Shown piece after piece: positions 1 to 22,735 of a stretch of DNA of 64,000 nucleotides. Position numbers and translations under genes: made by a program. Source of the stretch: a virus. Under the pieces are notes generated by a model. The model searched no databases, was not told where the DNA came from, and saw nothing but the letters and a program-made list of their open reading frames with translations. The stretch spans positions 64,001 to 128,000 of IMG/VR virus record IMGVR_UViG_3300043788_000023; one strand, written 5' to 3'. Position 1 is the stretch's first letter; each line of letters opens with the position of its first letter.

Positions 1-176
1 TAATCGTAGCCCCGCTTGCCCTTGCCGAGTTCTTTGAGGTTGACGTAGAGATGTTGAGCGTGGTTGAACAGGCGGGACTGCCGTGCGTTGTAGGACGCAA
101 TCAGGTCGCGTCGGACGGGGCCAAATTCCTTGGTGCTGAGCTTGATTTCGCCTCGTTCCCACTCGTTTCTGCTCAT
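1..176 (-). CDS. hypothetical protein, partial (runs off window start; MSRNEWERGEIKLSTKEFGPVRRD...)
   Basis: Not in ORF track; manually translated open frame from ATG at 176 with GGAGGG upstream and a sigma70-like promoter at 197-226. Confidence 0.6.
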   Translation of the reverse strand, partial: MSRNEWERGEIKLSTKEFGPVRRDLIASYNARQSRLFNHAQHLYVNLKELGKGKRGYD

Positions 177-196
177 TCGTCATTCCCTCCAGCTAT

Positions 197-226
197 AGTA
201 TACAGCGAGGAGGCTCGGAATGTCCA
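197..226 (-). promoter_or_regulatory. sigma70-type promoter TGGACA-N18-TATACT
   Basis: CTGGACATT...GCTGTATACT on minus strand; same boxes, flanks and spacing as 28673-28702. Confidence 0.7.
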
Positions 227-252
227 GCCATAAGTGACAGAAAAATAAGAAC

Positions 253-468
253 TTATATGTGATGTGGGGGTCTTACGACCGTCAGAACCACGTGGAATTC
301 CACGTCTGCATTCTCGGGGGAGGCTAAAACAGTGTCGTATTCTCCCTTGAGTTGGCGGGCTGCTTCCTCAAAGGCTGCGTCCTGCCCGTGATCCGTGCGG
401 GACGAAGGAGTGACGATGGCGTGCTTTGCGGTGATGCCGGGGACACTTGCGTGACAAAACGTATCCAC
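253..468 (-). CDS. hypothetical protein (71 aa)
   Basis: GTG start preceded by AGAGG; co-oriented with neighbours. Confidence 0.6.
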   Translation of the reverse strand: MDTFCHASVPGITAKHAIVTPSSRTDHGQDAAFEEAARQLKGEYDTVLASPENADVEFHVVLTVVRPPHHI

Positions 469-484
469 GTTGCACCTCTTTTAG

Positions 485-1447
485 TTAACGCTTCGCTGCT
501 GCCGCCTTGTTACCGGGCGTCTCGCCCTTACCCTGAGACTGCGGGATGTTCTTGACGAACTCTTCCGCTGCGGGAGCCTGCGGCGTGCCGGGGGAGACGA
601 TCTGCGTTAGCGGACGTGTCCTTCCCTGCTTGCCTGCGCCAACTTCGGTCTTGCCTTGAGCCTGCGGAATATCCTTGACGAACGACTCGGCTGATGCCGG
701 GGTTTCGTTGGCACGACGACGGCGGGCGGATGCGTTCACTGCCTCGCCCTGCGCCTGCGGGATTTCCATCTTCTTCGGGGCTTCGGGCTTACCCTCGCTG
801 TTGCGGTCGGTCACGAAACCTGCTGCGCCGGGGCCGCTGTTTGCTACACGGGGGACGTCAACCTGCTCGGGAGTCTTGGGCTGTCCACTCTCGTCACGGT
901 CAGTTGCGAACCAATCGGAGCCAGCGCCTTCCTTGATCTCTTCGTCAACCGGGGCTTCCTCTTCAATACCTTCGGCGATCTCTTCGCCTTCTGCCTCGCC
1001 GTGTTCAATCTCGGCAACGCCTTCCTCGGCGAATGCTTCCTCTGCCGGGGTAGCGTTCAGGTCAACACCAAGCTGATCGGCCGCCAGTTCCAGAGTTCCG
1101 GCGATCTCGTCAAGGCTCTTGTATGCCTCTTGGACTGCCTCGGCGAGCAGTTCGGGGGATTCCTCGGCGTAACGTACGAATTCCTTGGCGTACTTCCGGG
1201 CTGCCGCCACACGAACCTTGAGAGACGCACCCTTGGGGGCTTGGACGAGGTCTAGGTTATCCCTGAGATTCTGAAAGCCCTCGGCTGCTGCTACGCAAAG
1301 CTCAGCCAGCTTGGCGAGCTTCTTCTCAAAGTCGGTCGCGCCTTCCGTTGCGGCGTGGCGCATCTGCGCCCACTTCGCCTTGGTCGCCGCCTGCTTTTCA
1401 GCCTTGCGGGCTTGGATTTTCTTCAGTAATTCGGCTCGATTTGCCAT
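485..1447 (-). CDS. putative internal head/scaffold-like protein with repeats (320 aa, MANRAELL...)
   Basis: Start moved to ATG 1447 (GAGAGG RBS); acidic/Ala-rich, K-x-A motifs, F.TDR...VPRVA and IPQ[AS]QG repeats. Confidence 0.6.
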   Translation of the reverse strand: MANRAELLKKIQARKAEKQAATKAKWAQMRHAATEGATDFEKKLAKLAELCVAAAEGFQNLRDNLDLVQAPKGASLKVRVAAARKYAKEFVRYAEESPELLAEAVQEAYKSLDEIAGTLELAADQLGVDLNATPAEEAFAEEGVAEIEHGEAEGEEIAEGIEEEAPVDEEIKEGAGSDWFATDRDESGQPKTPEQVDVPRVANSGPGAAGFVTDRNSEGKPEAPKKMEIPQAQGEAVNASARRRRANETPASAESFVKDIPQAQGKTEVGAGKQGRTRPLTQIVSPGTPQAPAAEEFVKNIPQSQGKGETPGNKAAAAKR

Positions 1448-1478
1448 AGATAGCCTCTCTCTTAATGGGTTCCGTAGC

Positions 1479-4400
1479 TTAAATGTCCTGTGCCAAGTCC
1501 AAATCGCAATCCTCGCAGAGCCACCCCGCAGCAGGCTGTGTTGGGTCTGAGGCACTTGAAAAATCCTCGGACACACGCCACTGTACGTCGGGTTTCTCCA
1601 AGCCACACTGTTCGCACTTTGCCATGTGCGGCGGCCATGTCTTGCGTTCTTCCTCGGTGTACATCTCCGGGTTAGCCAGAGCTTCTGGGTCAATTTCGCC
1701 GCTGAACCCTGCATCCGCCATAAGACGGTGTTCTTCCGCCGTGATCAGAGCGCCCATCATGTGATACTTGGCGTTTGGAAGTTCCGGCTCAACGGTGTGC
1801 TTTTTCACGAGCGGTTGCTTCCCGCTCCCGTTTCCTGGGTCCTCTTCACTCGGCATGATCGCCACGGTAGTGCCGCCCGGTGCGGCGGGCTGTACCTGCG
1901 GACGGACGAGGTTCATCTGCTGCTGCACGTTCGGGGGAGGCGGCGCTGCGGGTGCAGCAGCGGCGTCTTTCATTCCAGTCAGCAAGCCGTTGGTGGAAGG
2001 ACCGCTAGTCCTGTGCTCGTAGAAATTCTCACGCCAGAGATCACCAGCGCCACGGTCATCGTCATTGCCGCTGTTAGACCCTGCTGCGGTCTTCTGTTGC
2101 GAACGGTACCAGAGATCAACTTCCTTGTCCATGGCGTCGTCTGTGTCTTGGTATGGAATGTCTTCCTCGTAGTCTTTGCGGGACCACATCGGCTTTTGCA
2201 TCCACCAAGACGCGCCGTGCCACTCCTCGTCCTTGGTCCAGCCGTGCGCTACCAGCCACTCTTCCTTCTTGTCCTGCGGAAGGACGAACAGAATGTCAAG
2301 GTTGTACTCGTCGGGAATAGCCTCTTCCCCGCCAGCAGCGGTGTGCTGCTCAGTCTCTTCAAATACGGACTCGCACTTCGGGCAGATGTAATCTTTCTTG
2401 GGTGCAGCAACACCACTCGGGTCGGAAAGCTCGTTCAGGCGCAGCGGAGTTCCGCAGTCCGGGCAAGGTATCTCAGACTCGGGCAGGGTGCGGACGAAAG
2501 CACGTTCCTCTTCATCCAACCTCCCGCCTATCCATTCCAGCCCTGACTGCTTGTCAAACTGATCCAAGCGTTCCGCCTCGTACATGGCGTCAACATCCGG
2601 CTCGGGACCTTCCTCAAACTCTCCACCGACTTCGCCCATTCTCTCAATGGCACTCCACTCGTCGCCGGGCATCTCACGGTAGTCACGCACGGGACTGCCG
2701 GACACCAATCCGCCCGTGTAAGTGAACTCGTCGCAGTCATCGCACCAAATCTTGTAAGTTTCGGGATCAGGCGCATCAATTTCCACATTGGAGCCGTGGC
2801 ACTTCGGGCACGTAATTTCCTCAGGGTCGGCGCTTGCCATATTGGACATCTCACCCTCGGTGCCTGGCGGAACGTTCACAATTTTCGGCGTGATGCCGGG
2901 TGTGCGTGGCGCAGTCATCGGTGCATTCGGGCTGTGCGGTCCGGGGGCTTGGTCAATCGCTTCGGGCACAGCCATAGGCTCGCCCTTGCCGGGAGTATTC
3001 GGCGTTGTCACGTTCTGTTCCTGCATCGTGACCGTGGTGTTACCGCTGCCCTGCGCCTTCTTTCCAGTCAGCGGAAGAGGCTTCGGCGAACGGCGTGGGA
3101 TCATACGCTTCTCTACTTCAACTGGTTTGGTCTCACGAACAAGCTCTGGCGATTCAACCCCGGTTGGAGATACAGGGAACACTGCTTGCGAACCGCAGGT
3201 CTCGCACCCGCCGCCCTTGTTGTCAAGCAGACCAACCGCACCGCAGTCCATGCACTGCCAGTTTCCCGTCTCGGATTCACGGGTTTGTAGTGGATGGGTT
3301 GGAATGACAGGGTCTTGGGGACGCTTGTGCAAAGGCGTGGGCTTTCTGGGTTCATCAATGTTGAGAAGAGAGGAAGGGTCCACAGCCTTTTTGCCCAAAC
3401 TGGGAAGCCCGCCAGAAACCGTGCGGTAGTCCATTTCTGACTTCCGAGGCTTGAGGATAGCTTCTGTGTCTGCCTCCCATTGCTTTCTGTTCTTCCGCTT
3501 TGCTTCTGCTTTGCGTTCCTTCTCTTTCTGAGGATCACACCCTTTGAGGTGCCTCTCCAACAAGTCATGCCGAATCCTGCGAGAGCAGCGGGGGCACTCT
3601 TCGTTGTGCATATCGCCAGCCGCCATGCGGGGTTCCCTGAGTTCCGTTGTGTCCGACTCGCCCGACACGTACGCCGTGTCCGGGTAGGTTTCGTTGCTGA
3701 TTGCCTGACCGTCCGCATCGTTGAATTCGTGCGGGAGCATTGCCTTCTTGCCAGCGGTGTTCATGCCACGTAGGAAGTCCTTATCGGTGTCCTGCTCAAT
3801 CTGGCTCAGTGTGTCGTCAATCTTGCTGGGTGCAGCATACCCTTCTTGTTCACGCTCGGGGTAGAACGCCTTCCATTCATCAATGATGTCGGACTGTCCC
3901 TTGCCGTCTTCCTCATGCTCCAAGATCATCTGGTTGAGGTACTGGTAGCCTTCGGTAGTTAGCGGGTTCTCCAAGAATTCACCGCAATGGGCGCAGTGCT
4001 CGGGTCCGTCGGATTCTTGGTTGTAGTATGGACCCTTCGGGTACTTGTCGGAGTCGTAGGATGCTTCGTCGCTCGGGTTAGCAGGCGTGTAGCCCTTCTT
4101 GTCAAGACGACGCTTCAGTGCATCGCCGCAAGCCTCACAGTAAACGTCGGACTGGTAAATATACTCGCCCTTGCCGGGGTTGTACGCCGCCTTCTCCATG
4201 GCGAACTTGTGCGCCACACTTGCGAGGATCGGGTCTTTCTCTTCCGGCACAAGGTAGGCAGGCTGCGCATGACGGCGTGGTTGTAGCCTTCCGGCGTTTG
4301 TGAAGGAGAACGCATGCTCCTTGAGCCATTGTTCGTCGGTCTGTAGCGGAATCGTGGGGTGCTGGTGTCCCTCGGCCGAGTTCGTGTTGACGTACGGCTC

Positions 4401-5918
4401 GTTCCGCACATCGCACTTGTCGCAGTGATAGACCTCGCCACGACGCTTGTTGTCCGAGGTCCAGCGATAGATGAAGGCGTCCTGCACCTGCCTGATCATG
4501 TCAGGCGTAAGCTGGTCGCCACGTATCAACCTTGCAGTCTTGCTGGCGGCTTCTTTCATGTTGCCGCCGCAGTGCGGGCACTGGAGGTTGTTGCTGTCGG
4601 AACCGTTGCTAGTGCGGTGGCACTTCATGCAGGTGAACTTCTCGTCCTTGGCTCCGACCTTGGCAGCTTCGGACACGCTTTCGGTCGGCTGGTGGATGTC
4701 AGGGTCTACGACATCCGGGTTCTCGGTGTTGGAAATCGCTTCCGTGAAGTCACCCTCAACTCCAGCAGTGTTCAGCGAGGAAACCATGGCTGGCCGTGCG
4801 CGTTCCTTATGGCGACGATCTTTGCGTTCACGCTGGGTGCGCTCGTTGCGGATGACATTCATCAGGTCAACGAAAATGTTCTTGTCCCCAAGTTCGTCGC
4901 TGTGGGACGTGATGAACTGTTCAATCATGTCGGGAAGGCGGCCGAAGTAGTCCTTGAACGAACCGAAGCTCAGCCCAGTTGTTTTGATCCACTCTTGCTC
5001 AAGGTCGCTGCGTTTGACGTCTGCGTCTTCGTCCGTCTGGAGGATGCGCCAGAAGATGTCAAACATCAGAATGAAGCTGTCGGCTGCCTTCTGACCCTGA
5101 GTCTCCCCCAGCCACTTGGCGAAGCCTTGGCGGAACTTCGTGATGTCCCTCTTCGCTTCCACGCTTTGGAACTCGGTCTCGCCGACGCCGTACTCCTCGG
5201 TGTCAAGGATGTTGACTTCCCCCTCGCTCTCGTCGGTCATGCCCGGCTGCCACATGGATACTTCTTCTTCCGGGTTACGTGCGTTGATCTTGTTCTGCAT
5301 CTCCTCAACGCGGAGGAAGAAAGCACGGGTAAGCCACTCGGTGAGCTTGGACGCGGCGTTCTGCCTGTTCACGCCGAGGCTCTTTGACTTGGCAACGAAC
5401 TGCGAAAGCGTGTCGCGTTCGCCGAGGACGTTGAACAGCATCTCGCCGATGAGTTCGTCCTTGATAATCTGTTGATCCTCGGCATCGCCACGTCCGTGGA
5501 CGTAGAGTTTGGAGGAGATGGACTTCTGGAGGAAATTGGCCCAGCGGAAAGCCTGACCGTCACGCCCCACGGGGAATGGCAGGGGGCTGTCCTTGTGCTG
5601 TTCGTTGTAGCGTTCAATGTACGAGTTGATGTACAGGTCAAAATCGCGGTTGTAGGCGAGGTGGTACTTTAGCCATGCTGCAAAACGTGCAGTGGCGGCG
5701 GCAACAGGGCGGAAATTGTGAGGCGTCTGGACAGGCTGCCCTTGGAGGTTCGCCAGCTTGACGGCGTAACCGTCCGGCCCGGCGATCTTCGACGCTACGC
5801 GGTAGACGGAACCGTCGATGCCTCTTACGATCTGACCCGGCTCCGGGGAGGGAAGCTTGGCGGACGCTGCCTTCGGCTGACGGTCATCGTCACCGAAGAT
5901 CAACGCTGCATACTTCAT
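1479..5918 (-). CDS. large multidomain putative head polyprotein (1479 aa): N-terminal sigma-like region, multiple CxxC zinc ribbons
   Basis: Long ORF, GAGAGGGAG RBS; segments separated by SKTA/GKKA/QKTA/QHTA-type motifs; at least 8 CxxC...CxxC-type modules. Confidence 0.7.
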   Translation of the reverse strand: MKYAALIFGDDDRQPKAASAKLPSPEPGQIVRGIDGSVYRVASKIAGPDGYAVKLANLQGQPVQTPHNFRPVAAATARFAAWLKYHLAYNRDFDLYINSYIERYNEQHKDSPLPFPVGRDGQAFRWANFLQKSISSKLYVHGRGDAEDQQIIKDELIGEMLFNVLGERDTLSQFVAKSKSLGVNRQNAASKLTEWLTRAFFLRVEEMQNKINARNPEEEVSMWQPGMTDESEGEVNILDTEEYGVGETEFQSVEAKRDITKFRQGFAKWLGETQGQKAADSFILMFDIFWRILQTDEDADVKRSDLEQEWIKTTGLSFGSFKDYFGRLPDMIEQFITSHSDELGDKNIFVDLMNVIRNERTQRERKDRRHKERARPAMVSSLNTAGVEGDFTEAISNTENPDVVDPDIHQPTESVSEAAKVGAKDEKFTCMKCHRTSNGSDSNNLQCPHCGGNMKEAASKTARLIRGDQLTPDMIRQVQDAFIYRWTSDNKRRGEVYHCDKCDVRNEPYVNTNSAEGHQHPTIPLQTDEQWLKEHAFSFTNAGRLQPRRHAQPAYLVPEEKDPILASVAHKFAMEKAAYNPGKGEYIYQSDVYCEACGDALKRRLDKKGYTPANPSDEASYDSDKYPKGPYYNQESDGPEHCAHCGEFLENPLTTEGYQYLNQMILEHEEDGKGQSDIIDEWKAFYPEREQEGYAAPSKIDDTLSQIEQDTDKDFLRGMNTAGKKAMLPHEFNDADGQAISNETYPDTAYVSGESDTTELREPRMAAGDMHNEECPRCSRRIRHDLLERHLKGCDPQKEKERKAEAKRKNRKQWEADTEAILKPRKSEMDYRTVSGGLPSLGKKAVDPSSLLNIDEPRKPTPLHKRPQDPVIPTHPLQTRESETGNWQCMDCGAVGLLDNKGGGCETCGSQAVFPVSPTGVESPELVRETKPVEVEKRMIPRRSPKPLPLTGKKAQGSGNTTVTMQEQNVTTPNTPGKGEPMAVPEAIDQAPGPHSPNAPMTAPRTPGITPKIVNVPPGTEGEMSNMASADPEEITCPKCHGSNVEIDAPDPETYKIWCDDCDEFTYTGGLVSGSPVRDYREMPGDEWSAIERMGEVGGEFEEGPEPDVDAMYEAERLDQFDKQSGLEWIGGRLDEEERAFVRTLPESEIPCPDCGTPLRLNELSDPSGVAAPKKDYICPKCESVFEETEQHTAAGGEEAIPDEYNLDILFVLPQDKKEEWLVAHGWTKDEEWHGASWWMQKPMWSRKDYEEDIPYQDTDDAMDKEVDLWYRSQQKTAAGSNSGNDDDRGAGDLWRENFYEHRTSGPSTNGLLTGMKDAAAAPAAPPPPNVQQQMNLVRPQVQPAAPGGTTVAIMPSEEDPGNGSGKQPLVKKHTVEPELPNAKYHMMGALITAEEHRLMADAGFSGEIDPEALANPEMYTEEERKTWPPHMAKCEQCGLEKPDVQWRVSEDFSSASDPTQPAAGWLCEDCDLDLAQDI

Positions 5919-5930
5919 CTGCTCCCTCTC

Positions 5931-6167
5931 TTAGTCGAGGATTTTGTCGTTCGGGTCAAAGTCCTGACCAGCGTCTTCCTTCAGCGCCGACTGGAGGAGG
6001 TCAAGGTACTCGTCGTGATCCTTGAACGCCTGCGGTGCCTCGGGTGCGCCGTTCTGATCGCGAACGTCGCCTGCTGCTGCGGACTTGGTGCCGGACATCT
6101 TGTCGTACTCGGACGCGAACAGCGAGTTCATGTTGTCAGCGTCGATTTTGGCGATCTTTTTTGCCAT
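5931..6167 (-). CDS. small acidic protein (MAKKIAKIDAD..., 78 aa)
   Basis: ATG 6167 with AGGAG RBS; K-x-A motifs. Confidence 0.65.
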   Translation of the reverse strand: MAKKIAKIDADNMNSLFASEYDKMSGTKSAAAGDVRDQNGAPEAPQAFKDHDEYLDLLQSALKEDAGQDFDPNDKILD

Positions 6168-6235
6168 GGTCTTTGCTCCTTGCAAGGGGCGGGGATAGTT
6201 TCCCCTACAGAAGGGGCGGAAATACGAGTTTTGCA

Positions 6236-7177
6236 TCAAGTGATGGTGATATTGGCGCTTGACGACACACCTGGGATGGCGACATGGGCGAAGTTGTATC
6301 CTTGCAGCGTAAGCGAGATATTCTGCGTGAATCCAGCCGCCACCACGTAAAGTCCTGATCCGCTTGTACTTATGAACCCAGTGTCAAAGCCAGAGGGCTG
6401 GTAATCTATGCCATTGTTGCCCGTGATCCTGATGAACGCCACGTTGAGCGTGCTCCACAACAGGCTGATGGTCTGGTGGATCGTCGCCGTAGACGGGACA
6501 GGGAAAAGCTGAGCCGATGGCGGTAGGGTATTGTCGCCGTTCAGGCTGAAGGACGCTATCAAGGCGAAGCCGGGCACCTCAACTATCGTGGTAGCCGGGA
6601 CGTTGATGACTTGCTGGGTCAGGATGTTTGAATTTGACGGGTTGTGGTTACCGCTGTTGCCGGGTCCCGTGTACAAGGCTTGTATGGTGTGCAGACCTGG
6701 AATCAGGATAGTGGTTGAACCCTGTGCCGTGGATGTCGTGGTGCTGATTGAATTCCCGGCTTGACTCACCTGAATCTGCGCCGTGTAGACCCCATTGACC
6801 GTGAAGCTCGTGGAAGTCGCTGAGGCTATGGCGACGTTGGTCTGGTTGAATTGAACTCCGTTGGGGACACTCAACGTGTTGAAGAATCCAGAAGTGGTGA
6901 CACGCTGTCCCGGTGCGAAACTGTTCGCTGCGATGTACGTCGCAACCGAGGTAGACGACTGAATCGCCGTGACGGACGCTGTCAAAGGCGAGAGGGAACC
7001 GCTTCCGAAACCGAATGAGCCATCCGCTACGAAGAACACGGCTCCGGTTGGTGCTGTGTTGGGGTTCGGATCGCCCGTAACCGGGTCGGACACCGTAGCT
7101 GTAAATGTGACCTCGTCCTCAAAGTTGGACGGTTGCTCGCCACTGACTACGAATGTGAATGAGTCATTAAGCGGCAT
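6236..7177 (-). CDS. virion structural protein with Ig-like (Big_3-type) domain
   Basis: VTFTATV...PTG.V.F...G.H.I.A.Y.G..N...S.S pattern; Thr/Ser/Gly-rich; TAATG coupling. Confidence 0.6.
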   Translation of the reverse strand: MPLNDSFTFVVSGEQPSNFEDEVTFTATVSDPVTGDPNPNTAPTGAVFFVADGSFGFGSGSLSPLTASVTAIQSSTSVATYIAANSFAPGQRVTTSGFFNTLSVPNGVQFNQTNVAIASATSTSFTVNGVYTAQIQVSQAGNSISTTTSTAQGSTTILIPGLHTIQALYTGPGNSGNHNPSNSNILTQQVINVPATTIVEVPGFALIASFSLNGDNTLPPSAQLFPVPSTATIHQTISLLWSTLNVAFIRITGNNGIDYQPSGFDTGFISTSGSGLYVVAAGFTQNISLTLQGYNFAHVAIPGVSSSANITIT

Positions 7178-7821
7178 TATGCGACCCCCGGAAGGAACGT
7201 AACGTAGAAGCCCACCTTCTGTATCCCCGGAGGAGACGGGAGGTCAACGTGCTGCACGGCGACTGTCGCCACATTGGTGTCAAGCGGATGCACGGCGATC
7301 ACGGGCTTGTTGATGTAGACCGAAAGGTTGGTGTTGTTATTGTAGACCACCTGCGTTCCGAGAATCGTGCTGAAATCGGGAGTCGCAGAAGTGTAGAGCG
7401 TGTGCCTCGTGCCATCGTCAACCAGCATGCAGTACGCCGGAGGCGTGCTGTGTTGTGCGTAGGTGGTGGAAAAAGTGAACGCCGTGGAAAACGGGAGGCT
7501 GATTGGGCTGATCGGTTCGGAGAAATTCCGTGCCGTGTATGGAGCGTAGAACATCGCACCGTTGGTGTTTGTCCAGTACAGGTGAACGACGCCCTGCGGT
7601 GGCTGCTGAATAACCGACAGCCATTGGACACCGCCCGTGACCAAAATCTGGATCGTGGACAGCCCGGACAGCGTGGACGAGTTGGCTTGCTTGACTCTCA
7701 GTTCGTTGGACGTTGAGATGTAAAAGAACACATCTGCGCCAGCGAGATTGCCGTAGCCACGTGCGCCGAGGTTAGACCCAACGGCTGTCGGGTCAAAATA
7801 GTGATCCTGCAAGATTGGCAT
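7177..7821 (-). CDS. putative tail/baseplate structural protein
   Basis: Beta-rich composition, coupled within structural cluster. Confidence 0.5.
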   Translation of the reverse strand: MPILQDHYFDPTAVGSNLGARGYGNLAGADVFFYISTSNELRVKQANSSTLSGLSTIQILVTGGVQWLSVIQQPPQGVVHLYWTNTNGAMFYAPYTARNFSEPISPISLPFSTAFTFSTTYAQHSTPPAYCMLVDDGTRHTLYTSATPDFSTILGTQVVYNNNTNLSVYINKPVIAVHPLDTNVATVAVQHVDLPSPPGIQKVGFYVTFLPGVA

Positions 7822-7824
7822 TCA

Positions 7825-10800
7825 TTACACCCTGCGACCCCATTGATATGTGACCGCCATGTTGGTGCCCGACTGCGTCTGTATCATATCGCAACCACCA
7901 GCCTGCGATACCAAGCCCGGCTGTGGTCCGCCGAACAGGACGAAACCGTACACCGGGTGAACACGGATGTAGCCGTTCTGGAACGTGGAGATGGTACCCG
8001 TGGGAATCTGGAGGAAGGTATACCATCCGAGAACTGGACTCAAGTTGCCGCCTTGATTGGCGTTGCCCGAACCGAGGAACTGTTGGCCGAGAGATGCGGG
8101 CGTCACTGTGGTGTCAATGGCGACAGACACGGCGTCGCATGAAAGCCCCATGTACTGGGAGTCAAAGCTGCCACGAGCCGGAGTGCCGTCCGAAGCCGAA
8201 CTGCTGCCCAGCCTTGCGGCGAACGTGCTGTCAATATCGCTGCGCTGGTAGTCCACGAACTGGAACGGGCCGATCCCGAGATAGAAACCGAACTGGAGCG
8301 GGGTGCCAGTCCATTGACCTGCTTGGAAGTTGTAGTACGGGTAGCCCGACTGGCAAGTGATGCGCACATTCGTGACGCCCGTCTGACGTGGGAACGTCCA
8401 GATACCGCCGTGGTGCGCACGCCAGATCGGCGTGATCGGAGTGTACGACACACCGAGATTGGTGCTGACCTCAAACGTCATACCACGCATGAAGGCAGGC
8501 GAGAGGGAAGAACCAGCGTTGTCGGTGGTGCCCAGCGTCTCCGGACCAAAGGCGAGTATCTCGCTGAAGTTCATCGTCGGTAGCATGACCGAACTGAACA
8601 GACGGAAATAACCTAGCGCCGTGTTGCCGTTAACCGTGTTTGAACGCAGGGCGTAGTAACGATAGCTGCCGAACGACGTGACATTTCCCGCCCACGTGCG
8701 TGTGATAGGAACGCTGCTGCGGGTGTCAATGGCGACCCACGTGCCGCCCGGAGGTCCGTTCGTGAAATCCGTCGCGCTGTTTGAACCGTAGAGCGTCCAA
8801 CCACTCATGGTGTTATTGCTTTGACCAGGAAGAACCACGCCTTGGTTGAACTCGTACGACTTGGCAATCTGGGCTGCGCCGAGGTCTATGGCGATCCACT
8901 GCCCGGCACCGCCGTTGGAAATCCACTGACCGTAGCCGTTGAACATCCACGGGCAGCCGTTGAAGGCGAAAAACGGCGTAGTAAAACTGGCTTGTGACGA
9001 GCTTGCGCTGAACACCTGACCAGCTTGGTTAGGGCGATTCAAGATGGTGGTCGGGTCTGGGTGGCTTACCGTCATCACGCACTGCACCGCATTGTTCTGC
9101 GCGACACCGCTGGTGACCATCGGCCAAATACCGCACGATCCGAAGGAGTCTTGCCCCGCGATAAAGCCTGCGGGTAGGGAAGTCACGGGCAGCAAGGTCA
9201 TCGGGTTGGTAAACGATGTGGGGAACGTGATGTTCGCCGGACCGAAGGCATCCGGCAGATACACTGTCGGGATGACCTGATTCACGGCGGTCACGGGTAT
9301 GCTGGACTGCGTCACGTTGAACGTCTGCCCCGCGAACATAGACCAAACGTACCGTGCCTTGCGGACATACTTGGTGTTGCCCCAAGCCACGTTGATCGTG
9401 AACCACTCAAACTGGTGGAATGTTGAACCAGCAGTCTGACCGAACTGAGCGACAAGACCGTACGGCAGGTTGACGTTCACTCCCGCCGTTGATGGCACGG
9501 GAGCGGCGTTTGAGACCGCGTCAGCATAATTATCCGCCATCGTGAACGCAGAGCCGTTCCACTTGAAGTAAGTGGGCAGGAAGAAAGTGCTCTGCTCCAT
9601 GTTGTGACCGAAAGTTTGAAACCCTCCAGGCCCGATATTGGACGCTGGTCGCATACCGTACTCGCCTACTTCACCTACGAACTGGATGCCATTGACGTCC
9701 ACGCCTCCGTGGATGGCAACAGGGACATAGTTGTCTGTAAACGATCCGAGGATAGAATAAGCGTCAACGAAAGTGACTCCTTGCCCGTTAGCCACATCAG
9801 GAACGAATGCCAAGTCTTGTCCTATGTCAATGACGTTGCCGCTGTTGTCCTTGGTGTTCGTGTGAATGACGCTCATCGTGCCGACGACGGTCTGGTTCCA
9901 CTTCGTGAGATTCCAGCTTGGGGGAGCCATCCAGAATATGGCCGAAGACGGGTTAGTGCCGTCTGAGTTCTGAGAAGTGAAGTTATATTCAAAATTGAAC
10001 CAGAACAGAGTGCGGTCGTCCGTCACCGACTTGCGGATTTGCAAGGGGGTTGGGGTTATCGGCGCTCCGGCAGGGAAGATGCCGAGGTGGGTCGCGTTGC
10101 CTGTGTCGCCCGCAGGACCGTAGTCTGCGTGTGCTGTCGGATCGGTGAATTCAAACTGCGAATTGGACAGCCCAGTGCCCGATACGGTCACGGTCAGACC
10201 GTTGAGCCAGATCGCATTGCTGATTCCGGCGAGGGTAACCTGCTGCCCCACCCGGAAATAGTTCGTCGCCTGAACCGTCACGACAGTGGCAGTCTCGCTG
10301 ATGCTGGTGATCGGGGCATTCGTTACACCGACCCACGTCACGTTTGAGTTTGAGATGGTGCCGAGTGGCTGCGAACCGTCAATGACGAACAGCTTGTCGT
10401 TGCGGTAGTTGCACTGCACCAAGATGACGGGCTGTCCGCTGACGGAGGTGGTCTGCGCAACGTCGTACAGGGAGCAACTGAACTGCGGCTCATAGTTGAG
10501 AAACTGGTCTGTTGAGGTATTGACATTGCCACCAGCGCCGAATCCTGGTAACCCGTAGCTGAAGTTTACACCGCCACCGCCCGTGATCTGGCTTGTGTTC
10601 CACGTGTTCGTGCTTGGGTTGTACAGCATCACCTGCCATTCAATGTCCGTCGCGGTGCCGCTGTCCGGCGTAGAGGCGTAGTTCGCGTGCGTGAAAGCAG
10701 CCTCAAACTGACCACCATTTAGCCCGGTGCTCAGAATTTGAAATCCATGACCGTTGAGAAACGACGCTCCTGTGAGACCGTTAACGTAGACGACCTCTCC

Positions 10801-12966
10801 CATTGCGAAATTGTTGGTTGCCGTGAACGTAACAACATTGCTCGTGAGAGACACGTTCGTGATGTTGGCGATGCCCATGTTGGACACGGTTGTGCCGACG
10901 ACGTTGACGTTCTCAACCGCAAAGGCGAAATCGCCGTTGCGGAGCTTTATCATCTCGCTCAAGCTGCGGGCATTATGGCGGGACTGGAACGCTGGGAAGG
11001 ATGCGGAACCCCAAGTACCGGGCACAATGCTGTATGGTGTCACACCCACCTTGCCTGGAGTGCCGGAAAGGTCGGTTGAGGAGTTCAACGGGTTCGTTCC
11101 CATTGAACCAGTCATGGCGTAAACAGTGGCGAACCCTGTGCGGATGCGGCACGCGCCGTACGCCGCCCCGGATGAAAGCGCCGGAGCATTTGAGAGAGCG
11201 GTCACGTTGCTGTTGATCACGTTTGAATCAAATAGTGCGAGATGCCCGTTTTCCGAAATGAAGTAAATCTTGCTCTTGTTCAGTCCGTAGTTCGTCCACG
11301 TCACACCACCGTCGCCGGGGGTCGTGCCAGTGTAGGTCTTGTTGAACGTCGGTATGCCGCCACCGCTGGTGCCGGGCGTGGTGACGACTTGGATGTAGCC
11401 ATTGGGGTCAAGGATCGCCTGACCCACGATGTAAGGATTGCCGGACGCCCACGGAGTCGTCTCGCTCCACACCGCAGCCCCAGCGATGCGGAAGCCCTGT
11501 GCCCACGTACCGGAGTTCCATGTGTCAAGGAGGTCAATGAAAACCAACGGATATAGAGATGCCTTGTTTGTGAAGATAGCGAACTTGGTCTCTTGAACGT
11601 ACAGTTCGTACTCATCGTTTATGTGCAGCGACGCATTGTTGCGGACACGGATGTCCGTCTGGTAAGCTGCCAGATTCGGGGCGCTGTCCGCTGGCGAGGC
11701 GAAGCCGTATGCGTTGCCATACACGAAACCCAAGTCTTGCCACACCAATGCGCCCGTGCCGTCAGTTGAGAACTGGTAGCTGCCGAAGTCGGGCGCGTTG
11801 AGCCAATTGACGCTGAAAGCGCCAGTGGGCCAAGTGCCGTTGACACCCGAGGTTCCCGCCGTCGTGACCTTCTCTATGTGTGCGAACCTGTCAAGAATTT
11901 CATAGTTGAGCGGGTACGCATGACTCGGTATCCACTCAAACTGGTTCGTCTGCGGTGCTCGGGAGGTCGGGCAGTCAGCAATTGCAGTAACGCTGAACAC
12001 ACGATCCGCAGCCGCCACATTGTTAGCGCCTCCGGGACCGGAGGGGTTAGCGAAGGGCGCTCCGGGGTAGGGGGTCTGATCTTCGTAGTACGGGTAGGCG
12101 TACGACATCGCCGATCCGTCCAGTATGCGTCCCCAGAATATGCTCAGTGCGCGGCTACCGAACTTGCGATTGTTTGACGCTGCGTAGAAGTCGTCAGGCA
12201 GAGCGTTGAACGGGTAGCCGTATTGGTCATTGCGGAAAACGGCGCGGGAGCCAGAAGCGAACGAGCAGCCGAGACCGCAGCTTAGGATGGTTTGCGTCAT
12301 CTGCTGCGTCGGACGCATCTCAACGTGGAAGCTCACGTTACCGGAACCGATGTTGTTTGTCGGACTGTCAATCTGGGCGACAAACATCGCAGGGTTGGTG
12401 TAGGGTGTGCGGCTGTACGCCGACGAGTTCAGCGTTATTGATGCGGTCGCGTCAACGGGGAGGTTGTTCTGGTCACGCCACTGGTTCGCAGTAGAGTTGG
12501 GGATAGGCCCGTTGGCGATGGTGACCGAGTTGCCGTGCCCGTAGGTCGGCTCGTAGTCCACCGCGCTCACCTGCGTCGGCGAAGTGATCGGGCCGGGATT
12601 TATATCAAACGTGTAATCAAGGTTGCCGTAGCCACCCACGAAGCTGCCGATGTAGCCGTAGTTTACGTTCTGGTCGCTGGTCAGGACGGCACGGACGAAG
12701 TAACCACCGTTCGGGCGACCCGCAATGCCGAAGCCGTTCGGCTGCGACCAAGAATCACCGCCAACACCAGCAGGATACGGCGTGGTGTTGTTCTGCGTAG
12801 AGGAAGACCAGATGCCGCAGATTTTCGTGTAACGGGCCAAGTTGCCGTTGATGTTGTCGGGCAACAGCGGATACTCTGAAGCGAACACACCCGCGTTGGC
12901 GGGGTGCGACCCAGTGCCGAACAGGTCGCCGTTGATCTGAGCTACTTGGAAAATGTTTACAGCCAT
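7825..12966 (-). CDS. large tail fibre/receptor-binding-like protein (1713 aa) with carbohydrate-binding-like modules and F5/8-discoidin-like domain
   Basis: G/S/T/N-rich; two W..Y..ILD..TT.GTSG repeats, two ~70-aa beta modules, QWIAIDLG...WTLYGSN...YRYY discoidin pattern. Confidence 0.65.
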   Translation of the reverse strand: MAVNIFQVAQINGDLFGTGSHPANAGVFASEYPLLPDNINGNLARYTKICGIWSSSTQNNTTPYPAGVGGDSWSQPNGFGIAGRPNGGYFVRAVLTSDQNVNYGYIGSFVGGYGNLDYTFDINPGPITSPTQVSAVDYEPTYGHGNSVTIANGPIPNSTANQWRDQNNLPVDATASITLNSSAYSRTPYTNPAMFVAQIDSPTNNIGSGNVSFHVEMRPTQQMTQTILSCGLGCSFASGSRAVFRNDQYGYPFNALPDDFYAASNNRKFGSRALSIFWGRILDGSAMSYAYPYYEDQTPYPGAPFANPSGPGGANNVAAADRVFSVTAIADCPTSRAPQTNQFEWIPSHAYPLNYEILDRFAHIEKVTTAGTSGVNGTWPTGAFSVNWLNAPDFGSYQFSTDGTGALVWQDLGFVYGNAYGFASPADSAPNLAAYQTDIRVRNNASLHINDEYELYVQETKFAIFTNKASLYPLVFIDLLDTWNSGTWAQGFRIAGAAVWSETTPWASGNPYIVGQAILDPNGYIQVVTTPGTSGGGIPTFNKTYTGTTPGDGGVTWTNYGLNKSKIYFISENGHLALFDSNVINSNVTALSNAPALSSGAAYGACRIRTGFATVYAMTGSMGTNPLNSSTDLSGTPGKVGVTPYSIVPGTWGSASFPAFQSRHNARSLSEMIKLRNGDFAFAVENVNVVGTTVSNMGIANITNVSLTSNVVTFTATNNFAMGEVVYVNGLTGASFLNGHGFQILSTGLNGGQFEAAFTHANYASTPDSGTATDIEWQVMLYNPSTNTWNTSQITGGGGVNFSYGLPGFGAGGNVNTSTDQFLNYEPQFSCSLYDVAQTTSVSGQPVILVQCNYRNDKLFVIDGSQPLGTISNSNVTWVGVTNAPITSISETATVVTVQATNYFRVGQQVTLAGISNAIWLNGLTVTVSGTGLSNSQFEFTDPTAHADYGPAGDTGNATHLGIFPAGAPITPTPLQIRKSVTDDRTLFWFNFEYNFTSQNSDGTNPSSAIFWMAPPSWNLTKWNQTVVGTMSVIHTNTKDNSGNVIDIGQDLAFVPDVANGQGVTFVDAYSILGSFTDNYVPVAIHGGVDVNGIQFVGEVGEYGMRPASNIGPGGFQTFGHNMEQSTFFLPTYFKWNGSAFTMADNYADAVSNAAPVPSTAGVNVNLPYGLVAQFGQTAGSTFHQFEWFTINVAWGNTKYVRKARYVWSMFAGQTFNVTQSSIPVTAVNQVIPTVYLPDAFGPANITFPTSFTNPMTLLPVTSLPAGFIAGQDSFGSCGIWPMVTSGVAQNNAVQCVMTVSHPDPTTILNRPNQAGQVFSASSSQASFTTPFFAFNGCPWMFNGYGQWISNGGAGQWIAIDLGAAQIAKSYEFNQGVVLPGQSNNTMSGWTLYGSNSATDFTNGPPGGTWVAIDTRSSVPITRTWAGNVTSFGSYRYYALRSNTVNGNTALGYFRLFSSVMLPTMNFSEILAFGPETLGTTDNAGSSLSPAFMRGMTFEVSTNLGVSYTPITPIWRAHHGGIWTFPRQTGVTNVRITCQSGYPYYNFQAGQWTGTPLQFGFYLGIGPFQFVDYQRSDIDSTFAARLGSSSASDGTPARGSFDSQYMGLSCDAVSVAIDTTVTPASLGQQFLGSGNANQGGNLSPVLGWYTFLQIPTGTISTFQNGYIRVHPVYGFVLFGGPQPGLVSQAGGCDMIQTQSGTNMAVTYQWGRRV

Positions 12967-13535
12967 TATGCTGCTCCTACCACGGAGATGAAGTAAGACA
13001 GTTCAAGGATGTCTGGTACTCCGCCCGGCACAAATCCATGCACGAGGAACGAGGTCGGCAGGACAACGAGTGTCTCCGGGCAAAAATTGATTTGAACGCT
13101 GTTGGCGATTCCGTACAGGTGCCCGTCAAATTGATCGTTCTGCATGCCCGTGAGACCGACCGCCTTGAGTTGCAGGTCGTTGGGAAGGTTGTTCCACGAG
13201 TAGAACAGCTTCCAACGGTACTGCGTCGCCGAACTCGGACCAGTGAGGGTTTTTCCCTGCCACAGCGGTTGCGTAGAACCACCCACTATTGAGTTGCTCA
13301 CCGTGCAGGTGTATGGTGCCCACGGGTTGCGTGCGTCCCATCCGGGGTAGCTCGCCCACTCTGCACCGTCAGGCAGGAGGAACGCGACAGGCAAGCCGCC
13401 GTTCGTAAAAGTGTTGTCAAAGATGCGGTTGGTGGTGACGATAAAATCGTCGGAGACGGCGTTGTCCTTGGTGTACTGGTGCAGGATTTCGCCCTCCTGA
13501 GACTTCACGACTATTTCCAGTCGGTTGTTATACAT
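12966..13535 (-). CDS. putative baseplate/tail structural protein (MYNNRLEIVVK...)
   Basis: Start moved to ATG 13535 (AAGGA upstream) to avoid overlap; coupled to downstream gene. Confidence 0.5.
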   Translation of the reverse strand: MYNNRLEIVVKSQEGEILHQYTKDNAVSDDFIVTTNRIFDNTFTNGGLPVAFLLPDGAEWASYPGWDARNPWAPYTCTVSNSIVGGSTQPLWQGKTLTGPSSATQYRWKLFYSWNNLPNDLQLKAVGLTGMQNDQFDGHLYGIANSVQINFCPETLVVLPTSFLVHGFVPGGVPDILELSYFISVVGAA

Positions 13536-13548
13536 CGAGTCTGATCCT

Positions 13549-14877
13549 TTATCCGTAAACCGTGCAAGCAGCGTTTCCGCCCGGCAATTCTGTTGGCGGC
13601 TGACCGACGACGGGCGTGACAAGCTGCCCAAACCCTATGGTGTCACTGGTAATACTGCCTAGCGCGACGAACCCGGCTCTTCCGCCTACACTACAGGTTG
13701 CTGAAGTCGGTCCTTCCTGAAGGGGCGTCGTAGGCTGTCCGGTGACAGGTACTTGGAGACCCGGATAGTCTATAAAGTCCCCAAGGGAGGGGGGTGTCGG
13801 AAGTACTAGAACCAAAAAGCGTTGCGTTGAACTGAAGGACGCCGTGGCGTCTCCCGTCATGAACCCCGTCGCGTACTGTCCGGCGTTCAAATCCATGACG
13901 TCGGAGGGGGCGATCAGGAACCCGAGGTGTCCTTGGGTAGAATCAAAAGCCAAGCTCGGTCCCATCATGCTTTCTTCGTGGTCGTTCGGGTTGCTCGGGT
14001 TGCGTGGGTTGAAGAACGCACCGATGGTGGCGGAGTACTGGAACTGGAGAATGCCTACGTTGGAATCCGTGAAGCCGCTGGATGCAAACGTGGTGTTCCA
14101 GTCCTCAATCAGTGTCCACGTCGGGTTCGGTCCGAGGGGGCTGCGATAGAGACGGAAAAAGTTCGTCGTGTTCGGAAGGTTGGTTATCCACGTCGGGTCC
14201 GGCTGTAACAGGACGCTGTACGTGTTGGTGGTCACGTTGAAGAAAATGATGTTGTGCGCCAAGTACGGCGGGTCAAACTGGTTCCTGACGAATACCGTCG
14301 CCATGTTTGAGTTGGGCACCTCAAAGATGAGGTTGTCGTTCAGCAACCCGGCTGCCGCCCCAGAGTCAGACGTGATGGCGAATGGACTGCTCGTGGCAAT
14401 CGGGATGATTTCGTTCGGGGGCCATACGTTTATGTCCAGCACCCTAACGATCAACCTGCTCAAGAAGTCAAAGATCAGGATGAACTGGTTGAAGGACGCG
14501 GTTCCGCTGTCAGCAGGATTGCTATAGTTCCCGTGTGTGAAAGCTGCTGTGAACGAGGTAGACGTGGCGGTCGCGATCGTGACGACTTGTCCATTCAAGA
14601 AACCCTCGGCAGTGCCGTTTAGGGTGACTGTCTCTCCCACCAAAAAGGAATTGTTGCATGTCACAGTCAGTGTGTTGGCGGTTACCGATGTGGCTGTGAT
14701 GTTCACCGAGACGGCGCTGTACGCTTCCACGGAAGGAGACGTGCCGGGACCGACGAAGAACCAGTTGTCTGGAACGCCCGGCTGCACGGAACCATCCGGG
14801 TTGTGGATGGCACGAGGCAGACGGGTGACGTAGACACCGCCATTTAACTCTTTGCAAGCTAGGAGCCACGTGGACAT
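13549..14877 (-). CDS. virion structural protein with inserted ~70-aa beta module
   Basis: Shares module with 6236-7177 and 7825-12966; TAATG coupling. Confidence 0.55.
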   Translation of the reverse strand: MSTWLLACKELNGGVYVTRLPRAIHNPDGSVQPGVPDNWFFVGPGTSPSVEAYSAVSVNITATSVTANTLTVTCNNSFLVGETVTLNGTAEGFLNGQVVTIATATSTSFTAAFTHGNYSNPADSGTASFNQFILIFDFLSRLIVRVLDINVWPPNEIIPIATSSPFAITSDSGAAAGLLNDNLIFEVPNSNMATVFVRNQFDPPYLAHNIIFFNVTTNTYSVLLQPDPTWITNLPNTTNFFRLYRSPLGPNPTWTLIEDWNTTFASSGFTDSNVGILQFQYSATIGAFFNPRNPSNPNDHEESMMGPSLAFDSTQGHLGFLIAPSDVMDLNAGQYATGFMTGDATASFSSTQRFLVLVLPTPPSLGDFIDYPGLQVPVTGQPTTPLQEGPTSATCSVGGRAGFVALGSITSDTIGFGQLVTPVVGQPPTELPGGNAACTVYG

Positions 14878-15212
14878 TAGATTCCGCCTCCGTCAATACC
14901 CGGCGAGTCACCCGGCGTAAGGTCAAAGAGCGGTGGGTTGGTCTGGAACTGGAACGGCGGCGACGGCACGTGGTGAACGATCTGGATCACACCAGTCAAG
15001 TTGATGGTGTTCTGCATGAAAAGTAGGTAGCGATTATTCGTCGCGTCAAACGAGAATGTCTGGATCACTTCACGCACGCCGTCCACATACACTTCAAGAT
15101 CACGACGTGGATCAAAATCACCAAGCGGGCCGTCTTGCACGAAGGGGCCGACGAACGGTGCGAGGACAAGCTGAATCCTGTTGGGGTAAGGCTGGTTGGT
15201 TTGTGCGAACAT
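14877..15212 (-). CDS. hypothetical (probably structural) protein
   Basis: 111-aa ORF, TGATG coupling. Confidence 0.55.
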   Translation of the reverse strand: MFAQTNQPYPNRIQLVLAPFVGPFVQDGPLGDFDPRRDLEVYVDGVREVIQTFSFDATNNRYLLFMQNTINLTGVIQIVHHVPSPPFQFQTNPPLFDLTPGDSPGIDGGGI

Positions 15213-16609: not shown

Positions 16610-16644
16610 AGGCGCACTTTGCCCTCTGCTTTAGTAGCGGAAAG

Positions 16645-16971
16645 TCAATAGGCGAAGGGCGAATCATTGCCTTCGCCCCAGAACACCACACGCACGCTGG
16701 AGTTACAGTAGCCGAGGGCGGTCAGGTTGCGGGAGATGCGGACTTTGACGAACTTGCGGAACTCGCTCAAGGTCAGGCAGTCTTTGAGATTGTTGCAGTA
16801 CTCGCAGGCGGGTAGCAGGTTCTCGTCTCGGTTCTTGCCTCCCCGTGACCGGGGTGTAGCATGGTCTACAGTGAGGGCATCCGGGTCGGGCTTCACGCCA
16901 CAGTACCAGCAACGTCCGTCGCACTTGGCGGCGGCACGGTTCCACTGGTTCTTACGAGGTGTTCTTGACAC
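16645..16971 (-). CDS. HNH endonuclease
   Basis: CWYCG...TVDHATPRSRGG...NLLPACEYCNNLK. Confidence 0.9.
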   Translation of the reverse strand: MSRTPRKNQWNRAAAKCDGRCWYCGVKPDPDALTVDHATPRSRGGKNRDENLLPACEYCNNLKDCLTLSEFRKFVKVRISRNLTALGYCNSSVRVVFWGEGNDSPFAY

Positions 16972-17098
16972 GGCGGAAGCAGACCTTTAGTGGGATGCCT
17001 TTCGCAAGCTCGCGCTGGCAATCCTTACAGATGACCCAGTTAATGGGTTTGCCCAACCACTCGTGAGCTTTGTAGTAGAAGACGCAAAGGCGCTTCAC
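16952..17098 (-). CDS. small hypothetical protein (48 aa, MKRLCVFYYK...CKDC)
   Basis: Below ORF-track cut-off; GTGA overlap with upstream stop, fills gap. Confidence 0.4.
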   Translation of the reverse strand: MKRLCVFYYKAHEWLGKPINWVICKDCQRELAKGIPLKVCFRRVKNTS

Positions 17099-17747: not shown

Positions 17748-17820
17748 CCGGGTCTCCCTAGTAGGTTAAATACTCAATAAAGAAAGGAAAATTGGGGAAA
17801 CGGAGAAAGGGAGGCGGGTA

Positions 17821-17878: not shown

Positions 17879-18838
17879 TTAGTTCTCGCCCGTGTTGTTG
17901 GACGCGACGAAGCGGCCGTTGACCGTGAGACGCTGAACGCCTGACGGGTTGAAGACCAAGAAGCCGAGGTTCTCAAAGATCGAGAAACCGATCTGGCGGA
18001 GGTCCGGACGGTCGGCCGACATCACCGTGAGCGGAATACGCTCGGGGATGACGCCGAGGAATTCTGCGTCCGCGAGGATGTAGATGGAACCGTAGCCCAC
18101 CTTACGCGACTGGAGTAGTGTTGCGCCCCAGAGGTAGCCCATGACTCCGGTCTTCAGGAGCTTGCGCTGTGTTTCGCGGTCGATGTTCTGCTGAGTCCAC
18201 TTGAGCAGGTCGGTGTAGTCGCGTGGGTTGAAGAACACGAACGCAACCGACAAGTCATGGCGCTGCACCTGACCAAAGCCGTCCGCCATCGAGTTGATGT
18301 CGATCGGAGCGTTGATCGCGATGTCCGGGTTGTATACCGGGTCGTTTGCCGCATGCGTTGCCGCTGCGGTTGCGACTGCGTCGAACAGGGAGAACACGTA
18401 TGCGTCTTCCTGTGCGCCGACTTCCGCCTTCGCCAAGTTCAGCGAGCGGGCAACGAGGTCGAAGCGGCGCTCCTTGATCTGGGTGATGGGGATCATCGGG
18501 TTGGAAACGATTTCAAACGTCGGGACGGTGACGCGCTTCGGCTTGGTGACGCGGACGATGTCCCCGCCCTCTTCGCCGACCACGAATGCCTCAACGAAGG
18601 AAGAACCCGGCGTGGAGCCGACCGTCATTGCGGCCGTGTCGAATTCCTTATCGTAGATGGGCAGTGCGCCGTCTGGGAGTGTTTCAACCATCAATGCCTT
18701 GCGGGCGATGGACATGTAGTCGCGGCGGCGACGGAGGGAAGGACCCAACGAGGCTGCGAGCTTCTGACGTCCGCCAGCGGTCTTGAGAAGCTGACCGAGC
18801 ATTGCGGTTTGCTGCTGAGTGCGTGATAGATTTGCCAT
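17879..18838 (-). CDS. major capsid protein (HK97-fold)
   Basis: 319 aa; last in protease-scaffold-decoration block, AGGAG RBS and terminator; E.LP.GA.P.YDK, VPTFEI..NP.I, G.LWGA patterns of large myovirus MCPs. Confidence 0.85.
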   Translation of the reverse strand: MANLSRTQQQTAMLGQLLKTAGGRQKLAASLGPSLRRRRDYMSIARKALMVETLPDGALPIYDKEFDTAAMTVGSTPGSSFVEAFVVGEEGGDIVRVTKPKRVTVPTFEIVSNPMIPITQIKERRFDLVARSLNLAKAEVGAQEDAYVFSLFDAVATAAATHAANDPVYNPDIAINAPIDINSMADGFGQVQRHDLSVAFVFFNPRDYTDLLKWTQQNIDRETQRKLLKTGVMGYLWGATLLQSRKVGYGSIYILADAEFLGVIPERIPLTVMSADRPDLRQIGFSIFENLGFLVFNPSGVQRLTVNGRFVASNNTGEN

Positions 18839-21796: not shown

Positions 21797-22735
21797 TTAC
21801 CTTCTGCGGTCTCCAAGGAAATCAGCGTCTAGCAATGCTTCACTCAATGAAAGGTCTTCGTATTCAGTCTTTTTTGAGGCTGTCATGGCAAATTTTGAGG
21901 GTGCCGATGATTGCTTCTGCGTGTACGGGGTAGAAGGACCCACCCATTCCTCGGCAACGATGTTCCTTTTTGCCGCTCCGGGGAACGCGGGGGTCGCAAC
22001 CCAGCTTGCCTCTACGAACTTCACGCCGCCGTTAACCATGCTCTTGTGCCCGCATAGTTCAGCGATGCGGCGGGGTACGCCGTCGTCGTCCGCCAGGAAC
22101 GTACCCTTCTGAAAAGACAGGTGGTTGCAGTACGTATTGGCATCGGTGACACGGGACCCGCAATAGGAACAGATTACGAGGTCGGTGACGCATCCCATGG
22201 ACAGGTAGCGGACATGACCCTCACGGATGTCGTGGACAAGCTTCTCATGAGTGACATCGGTAGCGACGAGAATGTCGCAGTAGTAGACCCAGATTGACCC
22301 GCCCTCGGCGACGTTCACCTTGCGGAGGACGGCGTCAAGAATGTGCCCTTTGGCGTACTTGCTATTCTGGAAGTGCTCAACGAAGTTGAAGGCTCCGACG
22401 AAACTGCGATAGCTCAGCTTCAGAACCTCGTTCGTCCACGCGTCGTCGTTGTTGTTGACGAGGTGACTGGTCTCAGGCTTGATGAGGTAGTCAAACGGCT
22501 CTTCTTCAACCATGACGCTGCTCATGATCGTCACGTGTGACAGCAGGTATTTTGAAGTATCGGCAGCGATTTTCTGCGCTTCTGCTGCACGTTTCGCACT
22601 TGCCACTTTGCAGAACGGATGATCTCCATCAAGCTGGCAGCCACGGAACGCACGCTTACCAAACATCTTCTGCCAGTCCTCGTTGCTGAGAACCGGGTTT
22701 TCCAGCACTGCGTTGGCGGTTTTCTTAAAGGACAT
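21797..22735 (-). CDS. prohead (capsid maturation) serine protease with Zn-finger insertion
   Basis: FVEH...KGHILDA, LSMGC, CSYCG...CNHL, FVEASWVATPAF motifs of HK97/herpes-type protease; synteny. Confidence 0.85.
   Translation of the reverse strand: MSFKKTANAVLENPVLSNEDWQKMFGKRAFRGCQLDGDHPFCKVASAKRAAEAQKIAADTSKYLLSHVTIMSSVMVEEEPFDYLIKPETSHLVNNNDDAWTNEVLKLSYRSFVGAFNFVEHFQNSKYAKGHILDAVLRKVNVAEGGSIWVYYCDILVATDVTHEKLVHDIREGHVRYLSMGCVTDLVICSYCGSRVTDANTYCNHLSFQKGTFLADDDGVPRRIAELCGHKSMVNGGVKFVEASWVATPAFPGAAKRNIVAEEWVGPSTPYTQKQSSAPSKFAMTASKKTEYEDLSLSEALLDADFLGDRRR

Follow-up and report, generated by a model that had tools for sequence, protein, structure and literature searches.

Does an uncultured jumbo phage carry a sigma factor within its virion, at the front of a much larger protein? 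This question is raised by one gene within positions 64,001 to 128,000 of the IMG/VR virus record IMGVR_UViG_3300043788_000023, a stretch of 64,000 nucleotides (nt) that is referred to here, in its entirety, as the window. Specifically, an earlier note on this DNA proposed that the front of a 1479-amino acid (aa) polyprotein (P0001) is a divergent sigma-factor-like domain that is packaged in the virion, released by maturation cleavage, and able to redirect host RNA polymerase (RNAP). The analyses described below demonstrate that residues 1-385 of this protein are a genuine conserved three-domain module, far from a chance feature, which we tentatively regard as the constant front of a head-associated polyprotein and for which nothing establishes a sigma-factor identity.

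A conserved module of three domains

The open reading frame (ORF) encoding the 1479-aa protein is present as a single copy in the phage record and has, 4 nt ahead of its ATG, the sequence GAGAGGGAG, a good ribosome-binding site. Each string upon which the sigma-factor proposal had been built is indeed found in this protein, namely DELIGEMLFNVL (residues 154-165), SQF (172-174), SKLTEWLTRAF (190-200), VSMWQPG (220-226), ESEGEVNILD (230-239), KRSDLEQEW (302-310), TGLSFGSFKDYFGRL (314-328), and LNTA (382-385). The segment in which the domain had been placed, positions 4780-5690, corresponds to residues 77-379 and is helical in the AlphaFold2 (AF2) model.

Conservation of the module extends to 36 long homologues, with E-values down to 1e-234, and 87 cluster representatives (50% clustering) from a library of 1.8 billion proteins carry it. 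Its position is nearly always N-terminal, with C-terminal tails that vary in length from 0 to ~1500 aa and often contain zinc ribbons. Across the family W126 is invariant, and the motifs NILDTEEH and TGLS..S.K are conserved. Neither Pfam nor PHROGs contains a family covering residues 1-385, the full 1479-aa protein, or its neighbours, and a search with a profile of the module family gave no match in a sample of 401 Pseudomonadota genomes. Judged from these sequence comparisons, the constant N-terminal module appears to represent a new family, previously undescribed and widespread.

The domain layout (Table 1) was derived from an AF2 model built on 34 sequences, those of alignment A1, with a predicted local distance difference test score (pLDDT) of 68, while Pfam and charge tests were performed on 58 members. 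The Tudor-like barrel at residues 21-73 lies just upstream of the segment described in the earlier note, which does not mention it, and belongs to the same module. pLDDT values are 80-93 for the helices of residues 74-213 and below 50 for the linker formed by residues 214-252, which has a median net charge of -9.5 over the 58 members and of which N236, L238, and E241 are kept in at least 90% of the 34 A1 sequences; residues 253-373 are helical in the model. Taken as models, these folds provide hints of Tudor and helix-turn-helix (HTH)-type domains, and the domain types suggest that the module may bind nucleic acid or transcription machinery.

The gene cassette, the junction motif, and a putative head polyprotein

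The 1479-aa gene is the middle member of a conserved three-gene cassette, both neighbours of which are kept beside homologues in three other contigs. In two of the three, the cassette is located behind a capsid gene or behind giant proteins with immunoglobulin (Ig)-like repeats, and the order shared by contigs L118 and L114 runs from the capsid gene through a giant Ig-like protein and a Big_3_5 protein to the small gene, the family gene, and the partner gene. Within the window, the capsid protein and protease genes are found 12-16 kb upstream of the 1479-aa gene and on the same strand. The partner gene begins at a conserved ATG at position 1447, the start at 1714 given in the ORF list being too far upstream, and its product, for which PDB matches are to coiled coils only, contains two repeats of the DWF.TDRDE...VPRVA type and three of the form IPQ(A/S)QG. 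Because at least 22 family members (among them P0033, P0035, P0057, P0073, and P0080) have the partner domain as their C-terminus, the two proteins are evidently fused in many phages and split in this one, a pattern of fission and fusion.

The module closes with a motif found throughout the family, (S/G)(L/A)x(T/L/I)A followed by A, E, D, or G, which in the 1479-aa protein reads SSLNTA followed by G. This junction motif can be recognized by eye in ~45 of the 58 members and matches the strict pattern in 16. Among the window's proteins, six occurrences of the strict motif are in the 1479-aa protein, three in head-region proteins of 1952 and 624 aa, and one each in the partner and in the capsid protein (residues 17-22); it is found in none of the 21 other window proteins, including the sheath and the enzymes. 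The capsid occurrence provides an independent hint that the motif could be the site of the protease, and L-x-T-A followed by a small or acidic residue is accordingly termed here a candidate cleavage code, common to the polyprotein and the capsid protein. The capsid motif, LLKTA followed by G, is positioned where a short capsid propeptide would be removed. Separately, several mid-sized members (P0055, P0056, P0065, P0070, P0082, P0088, P0092, and P0103) share a C-terminal cross-brace-like zinc module, PKC..CG...CP.C...FC..C...HH.NNP.HD, directly after their junction motifs, a module not present in the window's 1479-aa protein.

The conserved synteny behind the capsid genes, the partner fusions, and the junction motif shared with the capsid protein argue together that the 1479-aa protein is head-associated and processed. 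Building upon these observations, and upon the conservation, domain layout, and motif distribution observed, we infer that packaging, cleavage, ejection, and action on a target are the most likely course for the module. The explanation that we prefer, to which we assign slightly less than even confidence, is that residues 1-385 form the constant N-terminal module in a family of head-associated, processed phage polyproteins with a variable, zinc-ribbon-rich C-terminal load, which jumbo myovirus-like phages encode in a cassette located downstream of their capsid genes. The 1479-aa protein would enter the prohead along with its coiled-coil partner, the head maturation protease would cut at L-x-T-A-type junctions, here after A385, and the module would thereby become a free head-internal protein of ~43 kDa, able to exit with the DNA. 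The prediction of a virion-packaged protein released by cleavage thus gains circumstantial evidence in the synteny behind the capsid genes, in the junction motif seen throughout the family, and in its recurrence near the capsid N-terminus, and it is kept here as a prediction.

A stand-alone homologue of 365 aa, P0047, ends nine residues after the junction motif. It is encoded by the last gene of a small integrative element (L115 1-3300 and L116 1-8440; an estimated ~9-10 kb), which contains a Prim-Pol primase, a 595-aa protein, and a resolvase, is inserted beside bacterial housekeeping genes of the nadD/rsfS/rlmH type, and may be satellite-like.

Several points weigh against a processed head polyprotein. 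Firstly, the presence of the 1479-aa protein in the virion and its cleavage are predicted and unproven. Secondly, the element encoding P0047 has no visible capsid genes, and the cassette of contig L117 is located among small ORFs, such that a non-virion role is possible. Thirdly, the junction motif was defined from the 1479-aa protein, and only its occurrences in the capsid and other proteins are independent. Additionally, the HTH-type domain is not basic, which weakens the case for direct DNA binding.

Among known systems, the polyvalent or packaged head proteins, including T4 Alt, the internal proteins, and P1 DarA/DdrB, offer a close comparison (Iyer et al., 2017, PMC5512222, for polyvalent injected proteins). 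Like these, the 1479-aa protein is a large multi-domain protein encoded among late or virion genes, its domain load varies among relatives, and proteolytic processing into units is expected. It differs in that MuF, ART, MPTase, and other catalogued domains are not detected in it by Pfam, and in that cleavage is proposed to depend upon the prohead protease acting at L-x-T-A-type sites instead of an in-built peptidase.

Many of the same observations could be explained by a role in assembly alone, in which the module and its coiled-coil partner belong to the prohead core or scaffold, where they give the core its organisation or bring the variable load into the head by a logic like that of T4 gp22/gp67/gp68 or of a minor head protein of the MuF type, and play no part in the infected cell. 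We consider this unlikely. The variable inserts are bracketed by a constant N-terminal module and a constant coiled-coil C-terminal domain, the partner is acidic with coiled-coil PDB matches only, the cassette lies behind the capsid genes, and the product of the small acidic upstream gene, at 78 aa, is comparable in size to T4 gp67. Known satellites interfere with helper capsid assembly through scaffold-like proteins, and the stand-alone copy of the satellite-like element could act in this manner. The cassette is not, however, beside the protease and capsid genes, the usual site of a scaffold, and that position is already filled by genes encoding 717-aa and 223-aa products; moreover, globular Tudor and HTH-type domains are unusual in scaffolds, and the conserved, disordered acidic motif suggests a specific partner.

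Independent of any sigma role, the data define a domain family that is both new and widespread, a cassette in which the partner has repeatedly been fused and split off, and a candidate cleavage code, and they render the head-polyprotein idea directly testable for these uncultured jumbo phages.

Table 1. Coordinates of the module, the 1479-aa gene, and associated features of the window.
Feature	Residues	Window position	Strand	Basis or remark
1479-aa ORF (P0001)		1479..5918	-	homologues found; carries all strings quoted in the earlier note
Tudor/SH3-like beta barrel	21-73	5700..5858	-	AF2 model
Seven-helix domain with invariant W126	74-213	5280..5699	-	AF2; holds 'region 2-like' strings
Conserved acidic linker, predicted disordered (SM.QP ... 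NILDTEEH)	214-252	5163..5279	-	'region 3.2-like' piece
Four-helix HTH-type domain (TGLS..S.K)	253-345	4884..5162	-	'region 4-like' piece
Basic helix, net +6 in the 1479-aa protein	346-376	4791..4883	-	AF2 and charge
LNTA junction motif, candidate protease site, cut after A385	382-385	4764..4775	-	
Variable extension, 14 CxxC pairs (zinc-ribbon-like), five further junction-type motifs	386-1479	1479..4763	-	
Small acidic gene, 78 aa, directly upstream, first in cassette		5931..6167	-	53-55% identity to counterparts in L114, L117, L118
Coiled-coil acidic partner gene, 320 aa, downstream		485..1447	-	38-47% identity to genes downstream of homologues
Major capsid protein		17879..18838	-	phrog_2522, 1e-43
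Capsid LLKTA then G	17-21	18776-18790	-	motif scan
Head maturation protease		21797..22735	-	phrog_18299, 1e-18

Possible likeness to sigma factors and tyrosine recombinases

At the level of sequence, the likeness to sigma regions reported by eye proved no better than chance, and all tests were negative. The Pfam families of Sigma70 regions 2 and 4 (PF04542, PF04545/PF08281) match none of the 58 members at E ≤ 10. At E ≤ 1, PF04542 has no match in the phage record, as opposed to 11 of 14 control genomes, and PF08281 matches two other phage ORFs and not the 1479-aa gene. Profile-profile comparisons by hhalign of the whole module or its parts with sigma alignments yielded P-values of 0.036-0.9, with probabilities of at most 1.4% (0.07-0.9 for residues 70-216 and 140-216; 0.036-0.78 for the 'region 4' part), as compared to 0.002 to 1e-25 for sigma-versus-sigma controls. 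The sigma alignments, composed of RpoE orthologues and 30 sigma-70-family paralogues from five genomes, are shallow, so this test is not very sensitive, and the control of extracytoplasmic function (ECF) sigma factors versus RpoD itself reached only P 0.002. Profile searches of the PDB with alignments A1, A2, A4, and A5 returned chance-level matches and no sigma factor.

Structural comparison gives a divided answer to the expectation that domains 2 and 4 of a sigma factor would be matched: the match to the sigma-4 fold is consistent but low-scoring, while matches to sigma-2 are at the level of noise. Chain 9m7y_F of the phiEco32 complex (PMC12276001), presumably the phage's own sigma factor, matches residues 250-355 with 23% identity. 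Foldseek searches of PDB and BFVD yielded nothing at E ≤ 0.001 and one phage 'sigma factor' row at E 0.34, and in the structural sigma test no row fell below E 2.8, the top rows being Tn1549 Int and XerA. The Protein Atlas feature search gave no usable match, and the Atlas fold search gave only the Tudor-bearing UvrD and RapA, at template modelling (TM) scores of at most 0.26. Prediction of a complex between residues 70-218 and residues 225-345 of E. coli beta-prime gave no answer (score 0.01, without controls), an outcome that is neutral on binding. The putative recognition helices are not basic, with a median net charge of 0 and no conserved basic cluster. In these models, the last part of the module appears to fold most like sigma-factor domain 4, which does not by itself establish a sigma factor.

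The same four-helix domain has a rival likeness. Its best profile-profile signal is to the SAM-like N-terminal domain of tyrosine recombinases (PF13495/PF02899), which is equal in size and likewise consists of four helices: hhalign of residues 253-345 against integrase SAM-like alignments gave P 0.0031 (9 sequences) and 0.0056 (29 sequences), with 91-110 columns aligned in one register, and these values, though modest after about ten comparisons, are better than those of all 100 column shuffles (at least 0.016) and of all negative controls. PF13495 itself matches one of the 58 members at a sub-threshold E of 0.008, and the PDB integrase fragment 2khq is matched at E 0.23 in a profile search. 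The structural Z of the SAM-like match, 5.3-5.9, is, however, lower than that for sigma-4, the module's domain is not basic, no catalytic domain follows it, and Pfam finds no Phage_integrase domain in the full 1479-aa protein.

The N-terminal barrel, followed by a helical domain with an invariant tryptophan, resembles CarD/CdnL and the RNAP-interacting Tudor domains of Mfd, UvrD/PcrA, and RapA, and CarD, Mfd, UvrD, and RapA appear among the weak Foldseek and Atlas matches of the module. The Tudor domains of these four proteins bind RNAP. Eukaryotic Tudor domains, on the other hand, match the barrel equally well. The sequence signal for an Mfd/CarD RNAP-interacting domain (CarD_TRCF, PF02559) in the barrel is fragile and was lost with deeper alignment: the hhalign P of 0.0033 obtained with five Mfd sequences rose to 0.033 once 47 sequences were used, and CdnL alone gave 0.19.

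Could the module nonetheless be a very divergent two-domain sigma factor, in which the seven-helix domain is sigma-2, the linker is region 3.2-like, and the four-helix domain is sigma-4? Such a factor would either arrive together with the DNA or be produced late in infection, and it would steer the core RNAP of the host to the promoters of the phage; the Tudor barrel might provide a further hold on RNAP. The low-scoring sigma-4 fold match, the noise-level sigma-2 matches, and a domain order colinear with that of ECF sigma factors keep this proposal alive but weak, and the phiEco32 match and the RNAP-binding Tudor proteins among the weak matches are in keeping with it. Likewise, no multisubunit RNAP and no Sigma70_r2 match were found in the ~170 kb of phage record examined, but as the record is only ~54% complete, other sigma factors could be encoded elsewhere and their lack in the phage is not shown. 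Opposed to it are every sequence test, from Pfam and hhalign to the PDB profile searches, the missing basic reading surface, and the equally good integrase alternative for the 'region 4' piece. In addition, the best matches of the middle domain are unrelated proteins, and the invariant tryptophan is N-terminal to the 'region 2.2-like' helix and not at the position of the sigma region 2.3 aromatics. The sigma-factor proposal is partly supported but unproven, and we regard it as improbable.

Jumbo-phage sigma factors have been described (PMC7824862). When compared to ECF (group 4) sigma-70-family factors and to the split T4 late sigma factor gp55/gp33, the module resembles neither region 2 nor region 4 by sequence or by profile, its sigma-2 fold is not established, and its binding of RNAP is only hypothetical; at its front it also carries a Tudor barrel and ~50 helical residues that those factors lack, and it heads a 1479-aa protein in a head-gene region. 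It is distinctly unlikely, though worth stating, that a jumbo phage without its own RNAP packages in its head a processed sigma-like initiation factor, in which a Tudor barrel that anchors RNAP is joined to sigma-2-like and sigma-4-like domains with an acidic finger between them. This factor would be injected with the DNA to turn host core RNAP to phage promoters from the first minute, and satellite-like elements would have a stand-alone copy of it. Were the module a delivered transcription factor, it would represent a third route to early phage transcription, the other two being the injection of RNA polymerases, as in N4 and phiKZ, and that of enzymes that modify RNAP, such as T4 Alt.

Finally, it is highly improbable that the module is a cytoplasmic, non-virion DNA-binding regulator with a four-helix domain related to the SAM-like core-binding domain of tyrosine recombinases, possibly a site-specific DNA-binding protein or a recombination or transcription accessory factor: the hhalign, PF13495, 2khq, and Foldseek matches described above fit such a role, as does the stand-alone homologue adjoining a resolvase in an integrative element, but the modest P-values, the missing catalytic domain, and the non-basic four-helix domain do not, and the synteny with head genes and the fusion to a head-type coiled-coil partner argue for another role.

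Genomic setting and neighbouring genes

The window is part of a viral record of 169.6 kb, judged ~54% complete, and also encodes a 1213-aa tail sheath, NAMPT, NUDIX/NMNAT, and UvrD. A megablast search of window positions 1-20000 against the phage GenBank collection gave no match, and tblastn of the whole 1479-aa protein against the same collection gave only a 100-aa match, within the zinc-ribbon part, to Erythrobacter phage XM05.

The giant proteins upstream of the cassette (window 7825-12966 (-), L118 3717-6626, and L114 5273-8905) share Ig-like repeats with 30-40% identity at several offsets, and could be fibre proteins or decorate the head. The cassette of the window and that of L118 are each preceded by a Big_3_5 protein; in L114 the Big_3_5 domain is part of the giant protein. 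In the latter, a 454-kb relative, a NUMOD3 homing-endonuclease gene (9247-10008) is inserted within the cassette, where it separates the small acidic gene from the family gene. Approximately 2 kb before the window start, the phage record contains an ORF of 254 aa (L002 1060-1824 (+)) with weak matches to antiterminator Q (PF06530, E 2e-4) and to a sigma-4-type HTH (PF08281, E 0.008), and its product is a candidate late-transcription regulator of the phage.
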